Source of the DNA: Candidatus Altiarchaeales archaeon | GTDB lineage: Archaea > Altiarchaeota > Altiarchaeia > IMC4 > SCGC-AAA252-I15 | Direction: 5' to 3' | NCBI GenBank assembly: GCA_014727915.1 | Contig: WJMO01000006.1 | Span: forward strand, 160,001-224,000 | DNA length: 64,000 bases | Translations under genes and position numbers: made by a program | Shown: piece after piece, positions 195-56,827 of the stretch | Numbering within the stretch: the first letter of the stretch is position 1 | Layout of the letters: each line of letters starts with the position of its first letter | Notes under the pieces: model-generated | Databases searched by the model: none | The model's input: only the letters and a program-made list of their open reading frames with translations | What the model was told of the DNA's origin: nothing

Positions 195-557
195 TCATTC
201 ACCAGTAAACCCGGCACCTGGACCTATGCCACAGCTGCCCTCTTCGATGTCTCCCTTGCACTGGGGGCAGACTTCATCGAATCTTCTCTGGGCTATCATC
301 TCATCGCACCTGCATATGCCGTCATCCCAAAGCCAATGCCCCATGAAGCACATGTCACACACCGGGCTGATACAGCACTTGTACTCCCCGGACTCAACCT
401 TCTCGGCTATCAGAGAGTTCACCTCATCCAAGGCATTAGCCCGCCTAACCTGGTAGCTGTCAGGATAGGGCGGGTTCCCGCCTGAAGAGTATGCCAGAAT
501 GGATGATATGCCTATCACCGCCGCCAACGCGACAAGTCTCTTATCCACCGGCACCAC
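195..557 (-). CDS. Small exported Cys-rich protein, putative metal-binding
   Basis: N-terminal hydrophobic segment; YKCCISPVCDMC, CRC and CPQC motifs; same strand as and overlapping the DsbA gene. Confidence 0.7.
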   Translation of the reverse strand: MVPVDKRLVALAAVIGISSILAYSSGGNPPYPDSYQVRRANALDEVNSLIAEKVESGEYKCCISPVCDMCFMGHWLWDDGICRCDEMIAQRRFDEVCPQCKGDIEEGSCGIGPGAGFTGE

Positions 558-1209
558 CCAGCTCTGAGCCTATCACTTCCCGGAATGCGCTCATCGGCTG
601 GGCGCCGACTACCTTCTGCCCGCCTATGAAGAACGTCGGGGTCCCGGACACCCCCCGGCTCCTTCCTTCTGAGATATGGCTTTCCACCAGCGACTCCTTC
701 GAGCTGGAGTCCAGGCACCTGTTGAACTGCAACCTAGCTAACCCAAGGTCAGAGGCTATGGACTTCAGGACATCCGAGTCTCCGACATCATAGCCTGAAC
801 CGTGCCTTTCGAAGAGCATGTCATGGTATTCCCAGAACATGCCCTGGTCCCTGGCGCACTCAGCGGCCTCGGCAGCCTTGTCAGCGCCCCTGTGAAAGGA
901 GAGGGGAAACTGCCTGAAAACAACCTCAATCCGGCCCTCATACTCTTCACGTATCTGGTTGACAGTGGTCGCAGCCCTCGCGCAGTAGGGGCATTTGAAG
1001 TCGCTGTAGACGACAACCTGCAAAAGACCCCCACCGCCTGAATCAGATGCAACCACGGCATTAGGGGGCGACTGAACGCCCTCAGCCGGGGGTGTTTCTG
1101 ATGGCTGCAATAGCGCGTATGCAGCCACCGCGAACAACACGGCGATGACGACGCTCAACGCCAGTATGTTATTCCCACCGCAGCAACCGTCTGATCCTTC
1201 CCGTTTCAT
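541..1209 (-). CDS. DsbA/thioredoxin-fold disulfide oxidoreductase, membrane anchored
   Basis: YSDFKCPYC, FRQFPL and GVSGTPTFFI motifs; start moved to ATG 1209 (ATGA overlap with upstream stop). Confidence 0.9.
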   Translation of the reverse strand: MKREGSDGCCGGNNILALSVVIAVLFAVAAYALLQPSETPPAEGVQSPPNAVVASDSGGGGLLQVVVYSDFKCPYCARAATTVNQIREEYEGRIEVVFRQFPLSFHRGADKAAEAAECARDQGMFWEYHDMLFERHGSGYDVGDSDVLKSIASDLGLARLQFNRCLDSSSKESLVESHISEGRSRGVSGTPTFFIGGQKVVGAQPMSAFREVIGSELGGAGG

Positions 1210-2477
1210 CTTCCACCTCCGCATCCGCAACCGCATCCGCCGCCACCGCATGAACCGCCACATGAGCCCCCACCTGGGACCTCGATGGTCTCAACCGCCT
1301 CTGCAACAGCAGCAGGGTCCTCGATGTTTATGTCTTCTTTTACCACGAAAACCCCGGGTATCATCCCCATCCAGCAGCTCCAGGGTATAGTACCAGAATC
1401 GTCTGGCGTGAACTCGATCGTCTGCAAACCGGGTTCTATGTCGAATTCCAAACCTAGCTTGGGCACCTGTATGGCGTTGTTACATCCGTTTATCTCCTTG
1501 CCGTCTATTACCCACTTGACTGGAACCCCCCTTTTCAGAACGAACTTGTCCGGCTTCCAACCGTACCGGTTCACCTCCATCTCTATTACCTGGTAGCCGC
1601 CTTCAAGCTCCAATGAGAGGTTGCCTGGGTCGTCTTCCATCGCCTGAGCCGACACAAGGATGGTGTTGAAGTCCGCTCCCGTGCCAGTCAACGCCAACCC
1701 CCGGTTCACCATAACCAGGCCCAACAGTATAACTACTACCCCAGAGTAGCGAACTATCTTATGGGTCATCCTGGAGCTAACCACCGATGTCAAAACCCCG
1801 AAGCCGAGCAGGACAGGTAGTGTGCCCAACCCGAACACTGCAAGGTATAGAGCGCCGTGGACTGGACTGCCAGATGATGCTGCCAGTATGTACACCGCCT
1901 GCAGTGGGCCGCAGGCTATCATCAGCCCGTTCAACAATCCGATAACCGCGGGGCTCCTGCTCTCATTCTCCTTTTCAGACCGCCACCTGTCTATGAACGA
2001 GGGCATTGTAAGCCTGAAGCGACGGAACCATTTCATCATTCCCAGCATGTTGAACCCGAACAAAACCAGGAACAAACCCGCGAGTATGGCCGCCGCACCC
2101 CGCATGAACGGGGTGAAAGTGAAGAAAGACCCTATGAAACCGAATACGGCACCGAAGAACGCGTAGGACACTGTCTTGGACAATCCATACGTTAGGTGGG
2201 AGCCGTAGTTGATACGCCCGTCCGCGGCCTCCTTGGCAGAGTAGCTTACCACAAAACCCCCACACATGGCAACACAGTGGAAGCCGGTCAGCAGGCCTAT
2301 TATGAACAGCAACATTATTGAAGTGTCACTGTCCAATGAGGGCATGTACACGCCAAAGCTCTCATGAAGCATATAGTATCCCCCGGCGAGGATGGCCAAC
2401 ACACCCAAAACCACGGAGACGTTCTTCAAGTCCGCAGTTGAAAACGCTATCCTTCTGTTGATATTAGAATTTTTCAT
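1206..2477 (-). CDS. DsbD_2/TauE-like membrane protein fused to a cupredoxin-like domain with a Gly/Cys tail
   Basis: GFHCVAMCGG and ACGPLQA motifs; C-terminal GC...IPWSCWMGM; tail GGSCGGSCGGGGCGCGCGGGR. Confidence 0.85.
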   Translation of the reverse strand: MKNSNINRRIAFSTADLKNVSVVLGVLAILAGGYYMLHESFGVYMPSLDSDTSIMLLFIIGLLTGFHCVAMCGGFVVSYSAKEAADGRINYGSHLTYGLSKTVSYAFFGAVFGFIGSFFTFTPFMRGAAAILAGLFLVLFGFNMLGMMKWFRRFRLTMPSFIDRWRSEKENESRSPAVIGLLNGLMIACGPLQAVYILAASSGSPVHGALYLAVFGLGTLPVLLGFGVLTSVVSSRMTHKIVRYSGVVVILLGLVMVNRGLALTGTGADFNTILVSAQAMEDDPGNLSLELEGGYQVIEMEVNRYGWKPDKFVLKRGVPVKWVIDGKEINGCNNAIQVPKLGLEFDIEPGLQTIEFTPDDSGTIPWSCWMGMIPGVFVVKEDINIEDPAAVAEAVETIEVPGGGSCGGSCGGGGCGCGCGGGR

Positions 2478-2498
2478 GTTTATCCAGAGCAACTAGGA

Positions 2499-2536
2499 TG
2501 AAACAATATAAGCCAACATAGGTGAAACTGGTTTCA
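2499..2536 (-). promoter_or_regulatory. TGAAAC operator-like sites flanking a TATA-like box
   Basis: TGAAAC at 2499 and 2523, inverted GTTTCA at 2531; minus-strand CTTATATT lies between the direct copies. Confidence 0.55.
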
Positions 2537-3007
2537 TTTAAGGACCACTATGTTTGTCAGGCCTCTCCTACGCCTCTCTAGCAGGTTCTTGGACTCCAGC
2601 CGGTCCAGGTTCCGGGTTACCTTAACCTTTGACAGCCCGGTCTTCTCGGATATCTCACTCTGGAAGATTGTGCCTCCAGAGTCTGAGATCAGCTGGTAGA
2701 CTGTCTTCTCATCCCCATCCAGGCTTCCGAGGTTCTCCAGCCACTTCTCCCTGCCTGAAGGCTCCTGATCCAATCTGCCGCCCTTCAAAGCCAGGTATAT
2801 GCCGATGAAGAACAGTATCACGACACCAGCCAATCCGCCATAGAAGACGGGAGGGACCTTGAAATGGATCATCTCGCAGCTTTCCCCGCAGGTGCAGGAC
2901 TGGGTGCTCATATCGGCGAGAGTGTCTAGGAGAACTGACAATAACGCCACCAGAAAGACCGCCAATAGTATCAGCACAATCCCTACTTCCCGCAATCCGG
3001 CCCTCAT
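2534..3007 (-). CDS. Membrane-anchored winged-HTH regulator (2 TM, Cys-rich loop)
   Basis: Two TM helices around CTCGESC; C-terminal IFQSEISEKTGLSKVKVTRNLDRLESKNLLERRRRGLTNIV. Confidence 0.85.
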   Translation of the reverse strand: MRAGLREVGIVLILLAVFLVALLSVLLDTLADMSTQSCTCGESCEMIHFKVPPVFYGGLAGVVILFFIGIYLALKGGRLDQEPSGREKWLENLGSLDGDEKTVYQLISDSGGTIFQSEISEKTGLSKVKVTRNLDRLESKNLLERRRRGLTNIVVLK

Positions 3008-3013
3008 CTTAAG

Positions 3014-3862
3014 CTAAACCCATTCCTCCCTTAGCTTTTCTCCTTTTATGCTTATTACCGCCGATTTCACAGGCACCTTCCGCTGAGCCCTTTCAACAGC
3101 CTCTTTCGCCATCTGCAGCAGCCCAGTGCAGCATGGGACTTCCATTGTCACCACCGTGAGCGTGTTTATCCCGGCGTCATCAATGAGTGAAACGAGCTTC
3201 TCCACGTACGTCTGCTGTTCGCTGTCCAGTTTCGGGCAGGCTATCGCCAGCCGCCTTCCCTTCAAGTACTCACCGTGGAAGCGCCCGTAAGAGTATGCCG
3301 CACAATCAGCCGACAACAGCACGTCAGCGCCCTTGAAGTAAGGTGCCAAAGGCGATACCAGGTGCATTTGGACAGGCCACTGCCTCAGCTGCGAGGAAAC
3401 CTCACCAACCACTTTACCCACTACCTCCGGGTCATGGGAGAAGTCCATAGTCCTGGCTCCCGGGCAGCCCCCCGCAGACCCTGAGCAAGGCGTCTCAGGT
3501 GCTGCGGTTTCCGGGACCTCCAAACCCTTATCCTTCAGGAATCCGACAGCCTCGTTGTAGTATCCCATCTCCCCATGATCTCTCAGATGTTCAAGGTGGG
3601 CTTTTATCGTGTTATAGCCCTGCTTGACGATGTTCTCCATGACCCTGCGCTCATCGTAGGGTTCCGCCTCCCGCTCGACTATGTCTATCGCGCCTTCGGG
3701 ACAGTGTCCCATGCAGGCTCCGAGCCCGTCGCAGAAGAGGTCGCTGACCAGCCGGGCCTTGCCGTCTATCATCTGCAACGCTCCCTCGGGGCAGTTGGGT
3801 ATGCACAAGCCGCACCCTGTGCACTTGTCCTCGTCTATCTCGATTATGCTACGCTTTACCAT
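3014..3862 (-). CDS. 4Fe-4S dicluster-domain protein
   Basis: CTGCGLCIPNCP and CDGLGACMGHCP; C-terminal QWPVQ, ADC, CPKLD, MEVPCC. Confidence 0.85.
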   Translation of the reverse strand: MVKRSIIEIDEDKCTGCGLCIPNCPEGALQMIDGKARLVSDLFCDGLGACMGHCPEGAIDIVEREAEPYDERRVMENIVKQGYNTIKAHLEHLRDHGEMGYYNEAVGFLKDKGLEVPETAAPETPCSGSAGGCPGARTMDFSHDPEVVGKVVGEVSSQLRQWPVQMHLVSPLAPYFKGADVLLSADCAAYSYGRFHGEYLKGRRLAIACPKLDSEQQTYVEKLVSLIDDAGINTLTVVTMEVPCCTGLLQMAKEAVERAQRKVPVKSAVISIKGEKLREEWV

Positions 3863-3873
3863 GTTGTATCCTC

Positions 3874-4221
3874 TCAGCCGAACACGAAGGCTGATAGTGT
3901 GGGCAGCAGCAGGTACAAGACCATCAACGTCAGAGAGACATAGGTGACTATGCTAACAGCCACCATCGTCCTATGGGCTTTGACGTCGTTCAAGGTGCAT
4001 GTGCCGCCGCACTGCCTTTTGATCTTGAAGTAGAGGGACAAGAGCATGAAAACCGTGCCCGCCGCTATGAAGAAGAGCTTATACCTTGGAAGCTTCAATG
4101 CTGCGGTCATGCTCCCAGCCCCCAATGTCCCGAATATCATGACCAGTATCAGGGGCAGCGTGCAGCAGCTCGACGCTATGATCGTGGCCTTCACCCCCGT
4201 CCAGAATCCCTTCAATCCCAT
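3874..4221 (-). CDS. MerT/MerF-like heavy-metal transport membrane protein
   Basis: ASSCCTLPLIL Cys pair in TM1, three TMs, loop CGGTC. Confidence 0.65.
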   Translation of the reverse strand: MGLKGFWTGVKATIIASSCCTLPLILVMIFGTLGAGSMTAALKLPRYKLFFIAAGTVFMLLSLYFKIKRQCGGTCTLNDVKAHRTMVAVSIVTYVSLTLMVLYLLLPTLSAFVFG

Positions 4222-4445
4222 CCTATCCTATCAACCTCGCCTTTGAAATCCTCTCCAACAGCCTCTGCTGCCGGTGGTTCTCTCGTGTTCGGTGATTTGG
4301 CCGGCCTGCGCCGAGCCTCCTTAACGCTCTCCAAACCGTAGAATATTAGGGCAGCCAGCAAGACCACCACTAATATTATTATGAATATCCTGTTCTCGCT
4401 GACTCCCCCGCCGCCTTCCTTTTTGTTAAGCGTCTTCAGGCTCAT
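4212..4445 (-). CDS. Small single-TM hypothetical protein
   Basis: One hydrophobic helix; overlaps the start of the next gene. Confidence 0.55.
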   Translation of the reverse strand: MSLKTLNKKEGGGGVSENRIFIIILVVVLLAALIFYGLESVKEARRRPAKSPNTREPPAAEAVGEDFKGEVDRIGWD

Positions 4446-4456
4446 CTTTTGAAAGT

Positions 4457-4465
4457 AAAAAAAAA
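4457..4465 (-). terminator. U9 tract, candidate archaeal terminator/attenuator
   Basis: Nine consecutive T on the minus strand, 20 nt after the micro-ORF stop. Confidence 0.4.
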
Positions 4466-4484
4466 TGATGTTATAGATACTGTC

Positions 4485-4511
4485 CTAGCAGCAACCGCAT
4501 CCTGGACCCAT
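4485..4511 (-). CDS. 8-aa Cys-rich micro-peptide MGPGCGCC
   Basis: ATG GGT CCA GGA TGC GGT TGC TGC TAG; GGAGGTGA at 4524-4517, 5 nt before the ATG. Confidence 0.6.
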   Translation of the reverse strand: MGPGCGCC

Positions 4512-4530
4512 AAAGCTCACCTCCAAAGAT

Positions 4531-4588
4531 TATAGTTACTTTTTAACACTATATGTTGTGTTCTTTGAATAAATAGGTGTTGGTAACC
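4531..4588 (-). promoter_or_regulatory. Promoter GGTTACC-N6-TATTTATT plus TATAGT/ACTATA inverted repeat
   Basis: GGTTACC 4588-4582, TATA-like 4575-4568, inverted repeat 4531-4536/4548-4553. Confidence 0.5.
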
Positions 4589-4594
4589 GGATTG

Positions 4595-5119
4595 TTACCC
4601 TACGCCAAGGTCCAACTCCACCATTATCTTATGGGATTGGTCAAGTGGCAGTATCAGGTTGGGGTATTCCCCGAAGAAGTCCCGCGCCTCAGAGGTTGTT
4701 AGCTGCTCCCGGAGCCTTTCCGCGTGTTCGAGTATCTCCTCCTTAGTCCTCTTCTCCAGGCTGGGACAGTACTCCAGGGAATCAAGTGTAAGGTAGGCCT
4801 TACCATCCTTTTTCATGACGAAGAAGGGCCATAGACGACACCAGAAGGGCCCGACCTCGTATACCCTGCACTTCACTCCGTCTGTGAAGGGGCAGATATA
4901 GTGGCCGTTCTCCATGATCTTGAACGTGACCCTGTGGGTGTTCTCAGACTCCCTCTTGAACAGGCCCTCGGAGAAGCCCAACGCCAAGGCAGCCTCGTAT
5001 TCCTCGTCTGTGAAGACCGGAAAGAACGAGGGGTAGTGGGGGCTGAACCTGCAACAGGGATCAGTGCAGGCGAAACAATCCTCGGAGGAAGTCAGCATAT
5101 CAAGGTCTGGTATTTTCAT
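4595..5119 (-). CDS. YkgJ-like cysteine-cluster (CxxCxxxCC) protein
   Basis: CFACTDPCC, CPF, CRVYEVGPFWCRLWPF. Confidence 0.8.
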   Translation of the reverse strand: MKIPDLDMLTSSEDCFACTDPCCRFSPHYPSFFPVFTDEEYEAALALGFSEGLFKRESENTHRVTFKIMENGHYICPFTDGVKCRVYEVGPFWCRLWPFFVMKKDGKAYLTLDSLEYCPSLEKRTKEEILEHAERLREQLTTSEARDFFGEYPNLILPLDQSHKIMVELDLGVG

Positions 5120-7970: not shown

Positions 7971-8082
7971 GTTATAGCAGTTGGAACACGGGCCAGACAC
8001 CCATGAAAACCCGCTGTTAAGTATTTAAATACCATGATAAAAAAAAATCAGGGTTTTTGAAGGTTCAGAGGGGTATCTAAAA

Positions 8083-8110
8083 GGTTACCATGAGGCTTAT
8101 ATTGGTTACC
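8083..8110 (+). promoter_or_regulatory. GGTTACC-N6-CTTATATT-GGTTACC promoter
   Basis: GGTTACC at 8083 and 8104 (21 bp apart) flanking a TATA box about 25 bp before ATG 8126. Confidence 0.55.
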
Positions 8111-8125
8111 TGCTTATTGTCTTCG

Positions 8126-8992
8126 ATGGTGGATAGAATAGTATTGGCCGCGGGTCTACTGTTGCTGATAGTGTTCGCAGGCCTGGTCTTGGTGAACCTT
8201 AAGGACGAGCCCCGAACCATGTTCCCAACGACCACCACTACCGTGCCGACCACTTCAACAACAGCGACTACTTCGACGACACAGACGTCAACAACCCTCC
8301 CAAAGCCCGATTCCACTACAACCACCTCGACCACCACCTCGACGACTTTGAGGTATGTTGAAGTGAGGTGGAGCGACCTCAGCAAATGCCGGAGCACCTC
8401 CCTGGGCAGCATGAACACGCTGCTGGCGTGGGTGGGCGACGAGCTGGAGGGGAGTTGGGGGGAGAAGCCTGAGCCCAGGGCATATGTCACATGCGACAGC
8501 CCAGAGCTAATACCCGTGGACATAGTCACACTACGCGGCGGCAGGAGCATCGAACCCGTCAACGACGTCAACGGCACCTACAGGTTCATGGTGAAATGCG
8601 GACGCAACCAGCTGGCCGAAGACCTTAACGACTGCAGGGAGCTTAAAGCCTATTTCGACAGGAACACCATAACCGGCGAAGGTTCAGACTATACGGTAGT
8701 TGCCACGTCATCCTCAACCACCACAACCTTGAAGCGTAACCCTTACCTCGACAAGTTCCGGGGTAAGGGCTATCGCAAGGTTGACATGCACATATACTGG
8801 CTGTGCCCCAGCTGCGTGCCGGCAGTGAACAACCTGGTCATCGGCGAGCCGGGGGTGAAGAGCCGCAGCCTGGCCTACAAGCAGAACGTCAGCTACGTCA
8901 TATACGACCCCACAGTCGTGGACCTGGAGAGGGTGCTGGAACTATCAGGCGCGGGGGGAGACGTAGAGGTATACCAGGACCTGGAAATCTGA
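8126..8992 (+). CDS. Membrane-anchored Thr-rich protein with C-terminal HMA-like domain
   Basis: N-terminal TM, poly-Thr linkers, WLCPSCV...PGV...VIYDP HMA pattern. Confidence 0.7.
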   Translation: MVDRIVLAAGLLLLIVFAGLVLVNLKDEPRTMFPTTTTTVPTTSTTATTSTTQTSTTLPKPDSTTTTSTTTSTTLRYVEVRWSDLSKCRSTSLGSMNTLLAWVGDELEGSWGEKPEPRAYVTCDSPELIPVDIVTLRGGRSIEPVNDVNGTYRFMVKCGRNQLAEDLNDCRELKAYFDRNTITGEGSDYTVVATSSSTTTTLKRNPYLDKFRGKGYRKVDMHIYWLCPSCVPAVNNLVIGEPGVKSRSLAYKQNVSYVIYDPTVVDLERVLELSGAGGDVEVYQDLEI

Positions 8993-9763: not shown

Positions 9764-9903
9764 TCAAGACAATTAGAATTGGCAATTATTAATTGGACCC
9801 TGGACGATGAGCGTGGTGGATCCGGGAGGAGTTTCGCATCATCCGGAGTCACGATAGGGATATCGGCGGTTTTGGCTCCGGCAGCCATCACCCCGCTCAT
9901 GTA

Positions 9904-9933
9904 GTTACCAGATGGTTACCTCAACATTATAAT
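9904..9933 (+). promoter_or_regulatory. GGTTACC-N6-TTATAAT promoter
   Basis: GTTACC 9904, GGTTACC 9914, TATA 9927-9933, ATG 9956. Confidence 0.5.
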
Positions 9934-9955: not shown

Positions 9956-10318
9956 ATGAAGGACCTTAGGTATCTTACGGGCGTTTTAGCCATTCTGCTC
10001 TTGTCTGCCGCGTTCTTTGCGTTGAACACCGGAGCGGACGAGACACCGCAATTACCCCAGCAGGTGGATGAAAAAGCCCACGACTGCCTTGATTTCATCG
10101 ACTCTGACGGCGACGGCGTATGCGACAAGGAAGGAACGTGCCTGAAGCACAACAGTGAAGGGGGATGCGGCAACTGCGATAGGCACAAGTACGAAGGTTC
10201 TGAAGTTGGGTGCAGTTTCGGACGCAAAGAAGGCAAGGTCGGAGGATGCACTGGAGTATGCGGGAAGCACGCCGGCAAAGACCATCTGCCCTGCGGGCGA
10301 AAAAGCGTTTTCAGTTGA
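9956..10318 (+). CDS. Small exported Cys/His-rich protein
   Basis: Signal/TM segment; DSDGDGVCD; nine Cys. Confidence 0.7.
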   Translation: MKDLRYLTGVLAILLLSAAFFALNTGADETPQLPQQVDEKAHDCLDFIDSDGDGVCDKEGTCLKHNSEGGCGNCDRHKYEGSEVGCSFGRKEGKVGGCTGVCGKHAGKDHLPCGRKSVFS

Positions 10319-56690: not shown

Positions 56691-56827
56691 CTCATATCAC
56701 CCAGGTAAGGGATGAGTTTAAACGCATAAAAGACAGGCAGTAACTTGCAGGAAACCGGATGTCCTGGGCAGCAGAGGGCGGTTTTTGTTAATTTTAATAA
56801 AACATATATTAAATGAGGTGTTTTAAT

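Follow-up and report, generated by a model that had tools for sequence, protein, structure and literature searches.

What is the function of an eight-codon open reading frame (ORF) that stands, behind a Shine-Dalgarno (SD) sequence, at the head of a run of putative heavy-metal genes? The question is raised by a stretch of 64,000 nucleotides (nt) from a Candidatus Altiarchaeales archaeon (assembly GCA_014727915.1, contig WJMO01000006.1, positions 160,001 to 224,000), here called the window, whose minus strand encodes the micro-peptide MGPGCGCC. A reading made from the letters of the window alone (the sequence-only reading) had proposed a metal-sensing attenuator or a micro-metallothionein. To judge by its conservation, the micro-ORF is a real, conserved gene, apparently an undescribed one, and we consider it somewhat probable that the peptide itself is the product, acting as a stress-induced, ribosome-made thiol or soft-metal buffer. 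(Note that the genome comprises 1.81 Mb in 13 contigs and that gene counts given for it come from a crude ORF caller.) The micro-gene and its signals are as follows.

4582..4599, no strand: palindrome GTAAC-N6-GTTAC, predicted HxlR/DUF24 operator, the sole perfect copy with an N6 spacer in the genome
4568..4575, minus strand: TATA-like box TATTTATT, 7 nt after the operator, at the position of the TATA box of relatives
4535..4544, minus strand: operator-like half-site AAAAGTAAC, near the predicted transcription start, recurring in several relatives
4517..4524, minus strand: Shine-Dalgarno sequence GGAGGTGA, with a 5-nt spacer to the ATG, complementary to the 3' end of the genome's own 16S rRNA
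4485..4511, minus strand: micro-gene MGPGCGCC (ATG 4511, stop TAG 4487-4485), a member of the GPGC Cys micro-peptide family
4457..4465, minus strand: U9 tract (T9 in the DNA), beginning about 20 nt past the stop, predicted to be a likely leaky archaeal terminator

The TATA-like box, the SD with its spacer, the start codon, the peptide with its TAG and the U9 tract all lie where the sequence-only reading had placed them. The inverted repeat that it had drawn near the transcription start did not hold as such: only the half-site AAAAGTAAC, which also precedes the glutaredoxin-like gene of the same genome, recurs in relatives, and the conserved palindrome at 4582-4599 had been overlooked. The TATA-like box may point either way, as in relatives the box is also placed as expected for an hxlR transcript that runs leftward without a leader. 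Regarding the whole genome, the full 8-nt GGAGGTGA precedes 7 of the 1065 genes with reliable starts; of the 1535 genes, 2 have a T9 in the 60 nt after the stop, and in 144 the stop is followed by a tract with T at 7 of 8 positions; the arrangement of SD, ORF and T9 is beyond chance. An SD of 5 nt was found in just 153 of the 1065 genes, and TATA-like words peak 28-33 nt ahead of the first ATG, which suggests many leaderless transcripts in the host archaeon.

The MerT-like protein encoded behind the micro-gene has matches in 21 of 61 Altiarchaeota genomes, and upstream of these, among the matches listed, lie SD-led MGPGC micro-ORFs and a divergent gene of the HxlR family. A synteny test free of any peptide pattern was anchored on the orthologues of the HxlR gene on contig C6 of this genome, and every SD-led ORF 3-25 codons long was listed from the other strand. 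A divergent SD-led GPGC peptide of 6-10 codons was present at 13 of 18 close HxlR loci (12 of 17 genomes) and at none of three distant paralogues; conservation at orthologous operons, which the earlier reading had offered as its check, is thus borne out by synteny alone. The five close loci that have no adjoining peptide are those of this genome, whose hxlR has moved, and of genomes G001, G007, G020 and G010; in G020 the micro-gene and its operator sit on another contig (L281), and in G010 the contig stops after 59 nt. A search for the pattern SD-ATG-GPGC yielded 13 matches in 11 of the 61 genomes, each encoding 6-10 amino acids (aa) with at least two Cys, and the reversed pattern yielded none. 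When one extra residue was allowed, 9 matches were obtained, which added five more genuine loci; three of the nine (L282, L287 and L288) were dropped as out of frame. In total, the GPGC micro-gene is present in 14 of the 21 family genomes and in 1 of the 40 other Altiarchaeota.

This genome carries a second copy, MFGPGCGPGCH (L285; contig C10, ATG 22934, minus strand), which has a tandem GPGC unit, an SD and a T-tract and stands alone. Genes for metY, metX-like and cysK-like proteins begin about 1.8 kb downstream of it, past a convergent 445-aa ORF with no family match. A relaxed pattern, SD-ATG-(N)-CC-stop, matched in 55 of the 61 Altiarchaeota genomes; inspection showed most matches to be out of frame, and no second recurring peptide family was seen among the matches listed (50 others aside). 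In another Altiarchaeota family, an SD-like GAGG precedes ORFs of 4 codons whose last two residues are Cys (G031:C29:10109-10134 and G030:C23:91657-91681), which may be chance.

The HxlR regulator scores above the cut-off of PF01638, and all 18 close sequences share an N-terminal Cys-Pro and a C-x4-C-x2-C tail. The palindrome, as expressed in the script, is present at 14 of the 18 close loci. Scored with a matrix built on 15 sites of other genomes or contigs, 4582-4599 ranks first in the genome, and 10 of the top 14 matches lie just upstream of genes by inspection. Further predicted sites in the window are the following.

8072..8089, no strand: second predicted HxlR site, directly ahead of a full-length HMA-like paralogue (8090-8992, plus strand)
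9903..9920, no strand: third predicted HxlR site, ahead of a Cys-rich, membrane-anchored 120-aa ORF (9956-10318, plus strand)
56739..56756: further predicted HxlR site

Two more lie on contig C3 (C3:148203 and C3:153669), and the C10 copy of the micro-gene has a weak site only (score 8.6). The predicted regulon comprises the HMA-like gene, the Cys-rich 120-aa ORF, a glutaredoxin-like/thioredoxin reductase-like pair, a rhodanese-like lipoprotein and a divergent KaiC-like/DUF-type pair (names by inspection). A predicted operator of the HxlR type, missed by the sequence-only reading, best explains the regulation, and we infer that the C6 HxlR binds 4582-4599 and senses thiol stress. The MarR/DUF24 regulator YodB, whose binding site is a spaced palindrome, uses an N-terminal Cys to sense diamide and quinones (PMC8063818). 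The HxlR query had no match in three Bathyarchaeota genomes and one Promethearchaeota genome.

Regarding the wider family, a working set of 39 loci, partly chosen by eye and including the second copy of this genome, was assembled from archaea and a few bacteria. (Note that the GPGC residues are imposed by the search pattern at pattern-found loci, not at HxlR-anchored loci.) The 39 loci encode 20 distinct peptides of 6-19 aa with 2-6 Cys (18-44% Cys), and at the codons for Gly, Pro and Gly each of the four bases occurs in third position. An SD of at least 6 bases (36 of 39) and a T-tract or hairpin (37 of 39) are descriptive counts only, because both features helped locus choice. After GPG the peptides continue with CC, CXC or CXXC, including CGPC and CGHC, which we take to be active-site motifs of the thioredoxin and protein disulfide isomerase types. 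Longer forms (11, 16 and 19 aa) repeat the GPGC unit. Two or three Cys are present in 36 of the 39 peptides, and four to six only in L283 (9 aa), L286 (16 aa) and L297 (19 aa). The last, with six Cys, lies directly behind iscS-iscU and ahead of a DUF1858-like gene, and is a putative bridge between the micro-peptides and metallothionein-like repeats.

Of 85 pattern matches from a metagenome scan, 33 were short Cys peptides with an in-frame stop. These 33 and the 52 out-of-frame matches, which served as the control, differ in two respects: a T-rich tract is present downstream in 13 of 33 against 0 of 52, and a position clear of long frames in 15 of 33 against 1 of 52 (with related, non-independent contigs in both comparisons). 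Fourteen of the in-frame matches were kept, one was dropped as a duplicate of G019, and 18, mostly within long frames and with no T-tract, were dropped as probable chance. A scan of genome contigs gave at least 119 matching stretches, mostly chance or motifs inside long proteins; among the matches listed, it added two Elusimicrobia and two archaeal loci (L044, L058, L059 and L128, identical to L242), Altiarchaeota duplicates being left out of the set. In the order of one non-Altiarchaeota archaeal locus, 5 of 68 genomes matched, all of them genuinely, and viral contigs contained no GPGC micro-ORF match. The distribution of the family is patchy. It is invisible in current annotation because gene callers and profile libraries cannot see genes of 6-10 codons; no relevant mention of an MGPGC peptide family was found in the literature, where supplementary small-ORF tables or subscription journals could hold such peptides.

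The position of the micro-gene among its neighbours varies. The next gene is convergent in 7 of the 39 loci (L284, L225, L235, L295, L212, L285 and L059): a superoxide dismutase gene in L225, L235 and L295, which belong to one lineage, a DUF447 gene in L212, and unannotated ORFs in L285 and L059. In L284 (genome G006), an HxlR-paired copy, hxlR, operator, micro-gene and terminator form a unit that is followed by the convergent gene. (L030, with a co-oriented ORF about 320 nt on, was left out of this count.) In 12 of the 39 loci the micro-ORF lies directly behind a co-oriented gene, encoding a ZIP transporter (three loci), Hsp20 (three), MerR, IscU, a kinase or ORFs of 42, 47 and 379 aa, and behind the three ZIP-trailing copies the downstream gene is different in each. 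Other neighbours are MerT-HMA with zf_CopZ, rhodanese, DUF1858, glutaredoxin with a pyridine nucleotide-disulfide oxidoreductase, and a peroxiredoxin (AhpC-like, by inspection).

Three of these loci deserve description. In the Elusimicrobia locus L058 (minus strand), the micro-gene lies between merR and a merT-HMA fusion (between 2390-2836 and 1702-2277) and is followed by a strong hairpin; this bacterial locus shares its functional context with the archaeal loci. In the Elusimicrobia locus L044/L243, a sigma-70-like promoter, the micro-gene and a hairpin precede a gene for an AhpC-like peroxiredoxin. The 42-aa ORF of L220 (2544-2669, minus strand) contains 12 Cys, has no Pfam match and lies behind a DUF134 gene and 13 nt ahead of the micro-gene; it is predicted to be an unannotated metallothionein-like protein.

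In the reading that we favour, HxlR would respond to thiol stress via its three invariant Cys sites by switching on the promoter. With a strong SD and a U-tract close by, short transcripts would be plentiful and the peptide would reach a high copy number; the membrane genes behind, which have no SD, would be expressed at a lower level through leaky transcriptional read-through. The 8-residue, three-thiol peptide would buffer soft metals and metalloids, or oxidants and electrophiles, and so work like a minimal metallothionein or a stand-in for glutathione or phytochelatin. More speculatively, the invariant Gly-Pro-Gly start might shield it from aminopeptidases, and the glutaredoxin-like/thioredoxin-reductase pair of the predicted regulon might re-reduce it. 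The earlier suggestion that the peptide binds metal as a micro-metallothionein gains in plausibility, indirectly, from conservation at the peptide level, from metal and thiol neighbours in two domains, from stand-alone copies and from the longer repeat forms. Glutamate-cysteine ligase was not found in the family genomes (PF04107 in 0 of 21; PF04262 in 0 of 1).

Several points weigh against a buffering product. With two or three Cys, a free 6-8-mer cannot by itself form the cluster of a metallothionein, and its breakdown may be rapid. The absence of GshA counts as 'not found' only, because the genomes are incomplete (57-93%). (A weak GSH-S_ATP match was not taken as GshB, since the profile also matches control genomes not known to make glutathione.) The HxlR loci of G001 and G007 have no GPGC micro-ORF; two genome samples, of 201 and 251, contained no match beyond the centre genome, and none of 6 matches in 401 genomes was genuine on inspection, so that the gene is rare outside the family. 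The convergent cases stem from about five lineages and are not seven independent events. Finally, most Altiarchaeota loci have the layout of an attenuator, the ORF coming first and a U-tract preceding SD-less genes, adjacent Cys codons are present in 26 of the 39 peptides, and several loci have metY downstream (L026, L029, L033/L007 and L205).

The layout and the adjacent Cys codons are what a Cys-sensing leader would lead one to expect: when Cys-tRNA runs short, ribosomes slowed at the Cys codons would prevent aCPSF1/FttA from terminating transcription at the U-tract, or would make the downstream start accessible. At most HxlR loci the micro-ORF is indeed the first of the gene run, with the U-tract some 10-40 nt past its stop, followed by HMA-like, MerT-like or metY genes that have no SD. 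Two consecutive Cys are enough in mycobacterial leaders (10.1101/834739), U-tracts together with aCPSF1 set the efficacy of archaeal termination (PMC8716108), and data on archaeal transcription-translation coupling are called scarce (PMC13681488). However, the seven loci with a convergent next gene offer nothing to attenuate, adjacent Cys residues are absent from 13 of the 39 peptides, and a run of three occurs in none; sensing by codons would not call for an invariant Gly-Pro-Gly, and a dedicated DNA-binding regulator is already there. Over 38 loci, no excess pairing with the downstream 80 nt was found for the coding region (2 of 38 with p<=0.05; combined p 0.27) or for the SD (0 of 38; combined p 0.62), in tests that do not address an unstructured FttA-based mechanism. 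L044/L243 is one of the two loci with nominal coding-downstream pairing (p 0.03) and the best candidate for a cis-acting switch. The leader of the window folds with a z-score of -0.33, no Rfam family matched between 4300 and 4700, and no hairpin terminator was found in the window. Attenuation cannot be the general function of the family, given the 7 of 39 copies that face a convergent gene and the fact that no consistent RNA switch was found. The attenuator proposed by the sequence-only reading thus falls as a family-wide mechanism; at the head-of-run loci, including the one in the window, we regard such a leader as unlikely.

A second cis-acting mechanism, a nascent-peptide sensor, appears quite improbable to us. 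Here Cu, Hg or As bound to the peptide in the exit tunnel would arrest the ribosome and so control termination or re-initiation, possibly beside a role in trans. It would account for conservation at the peptide level and for the MerT and HMA genes downstream in Altiarchaeota and at the one Elusimicrobia merR-merT locus; it fits poorly with stand-alone and terminal copies, with a distance from stop to next gene of anything between about 40 and 250 nt, and with the varying length and C-terminus of the peptide. No arrest motif known to us could be recognised in the peptides.

That the peptide is the precursor of a ribosomally synthesised and post-translationally modified peptide (RiPP), or a sulfur or cysteine carrier for enzymes encoded elsewhere, has at best a slender chance. 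A constant N-terminus with a variable Cys tail, and rhodanese, IscS/IscU and MetY among the neighbours, are in keeping with this idea, yet 6 aa leave little room for leader and core, and the recurring co-located modifying enzyme of RiPP systems was not seen among the annotated neighbours scanned (54 + 15 + 15 proteins, part of the neighbours of the 39 loci).

The sequence-only reading had also pointed out that the TAG is in frame with ATG 4445 across 13 sense codons, which is correct. Read-through would give the 77-aa protein encoded there an N-terminal Cys extension; this origin, like a pseudogene remnant or chance, has next to no probability. TAG is an ordinary stop that ends 481 of the 1535 genes here, and the next gene is in frame at just 5 of 13 head-of-operon loci (HxlR/MerT type), so that read-through is not conserved. 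The stops over the 39 loci are TAA in 25, TGA in 11 and TAG in 3 (TAA or TGA in 36 of 39), and read-through is therefore largely refuted; recoded-TAG (pyrrolysine) systems, by comparison, have a conserved TAG and frame. Against chance stands the result with the reversed pattern, 0 matches versus 13.

The genes that follow the micro-gene are these.

4212..4445, minus strand: 77-aa stub, the N-terminal membrane anchor of an HMA-like protein, with its metal-binding domain gone and no SD
3874..4221, minus strand: MerT-like membrane protein (PF02411 E 4.4e-6, 27.2 vs 32.9 bits, under the cut-off; NF010314 E 2.3e-7, under the cut-off)
3014..3862, minus strand: 4Fe-4S dicluster protein
2534..3007, minus strand: membrane winged helix-turn-helix protein (DUF7343)
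1206..2492, minus strand: DsbD_2/cupredoxin-like protein
541..1263, minus strand: DsbA-like thioredoxin

The MerT-like gene had been placed right behind the U-tract; it is in fact the second gene, below the Pfam cut-off, and the first is the stub. The stub matches the HMA-like protein of relative G002 in the membrane-anchor part only (36% identity over 47 aa), and in relatives the full form of the HMA-like protein is the gene after the micro-gene. With a stubbed HMA-like gene, a full-length paralogue at 8090-8992 behind its own predicted HxlR site, and hxlR moved to contig C6, away from the micro-gene, the locus looks recently rearranged. Side observations are a Gly/Cys-rich tail at the C-terminus of the DsbD_2/cupredoxin protein and a 120-aa Cys-rich secreted ORF at 195-557 of the window, for which neither Pfam nor NCBIfam gave a match.

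A role in cis at this locus and a role in trans elsewhere could be combined. Taken further, the buffer reading leads to a proposal that we hold as tentative and rather doubtful: the inducible low-molecular-weight thiol of several lineages of archaea, and of a few bacteria, would be a ribosome-made peptide of six to ten residues that replaces glutathione or phytochelatin, is capped by Gly-Pro, offers dithiols of the CC, CXC or thioredoxin-like CXXC type and is recycled by a co-regulated glutaredoxin-like/thioredoxin-reductase pair. If so, few genes with an unmodified product that acts in trans would be shorter. Any action in trans would lower the size floor for functional gene products and hint at how anaerobic archaea with reduced genomes and no detectable glutathione synthesis buffer thiol-reactive stress; action in cis at the HxlR loci would provide a ready test case for archaeal leader-peptide attenuation.

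Glutathione and phytochelatins are enzyme-made gamma-glutamyl peptides. The GPGC peptides resemble them in size, thiol content and partner genes (glutaredoxin-like, thioredoxin reductase-like, peroxiredoxin-like and superoxide dismutase), but are gene-encoded, have ordinary peptide bonds and occur in genomes with no detected glutamate-cysteine ligase.

Metallothioneins of the SmtA and MymT type measure about 50 aa and have many Cys. Among the general features of metallothioneins, the peptides share small size, richness in Cys (about 30% or more; 3 of 8 residues here) and the lack of an aromatic core, but with two or three Cys in 36 of the 39 they have too few per chain for a multi-metal thiolate cluster. 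SmtB-SmtA of Synechococcus and MymT of mycobacteria (the latter in PMC11672702) are alike in pairing a small Cys-rich gene head-to-head with a Cys-using winged-helix regulator, with a palindromic operator and metal-handling neighbours. They differ in that the micro-peptide mostly has 6-10 aa and 2-3 Cys, the regulator is HxlR/DUF24 and not ArsR/SmtB or CsoR, and the host is an archaeon.

The mycobacterial polycysteine attenuators are leaderless small ORFs (10.1101/834739) that likewise are very short and head sulfur-related gene runs; they contain adjacent Cys codons, as do the ORF of the window and 26 of the 39 family members in all. In contrast to them, the GPGC micro-genes are SD-led, have an invariant Gly-Pro-Gly and never three Cys running, lack an SD-sequestering duplex and are often last or alone. 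A leader attenuator lies always 5' of a co-oriented gene, which is true in the window, though not across the 39 loci with their 7 convergent and 12 trailing cases, and no alternative RNA structure over ORF or SD was detected.

With the MarR/DUF24 thiol-stress regulators YodB and QsrR (PMC8063818), the Altiarchaeota HxlR shares the fold of the HxlR family, a reactive N-terminal Cys and a spaced palindromic operator, conserved here at the promoter as in an HxlR/DUF24 regulon; it differs in its C-x4-C-x2-C tail, in its operator and in having the micro-peptide as its most constant target. Taken as a whole, the element most resembles a regulator-metallothionein divergon shrunk to the size of glutathione.
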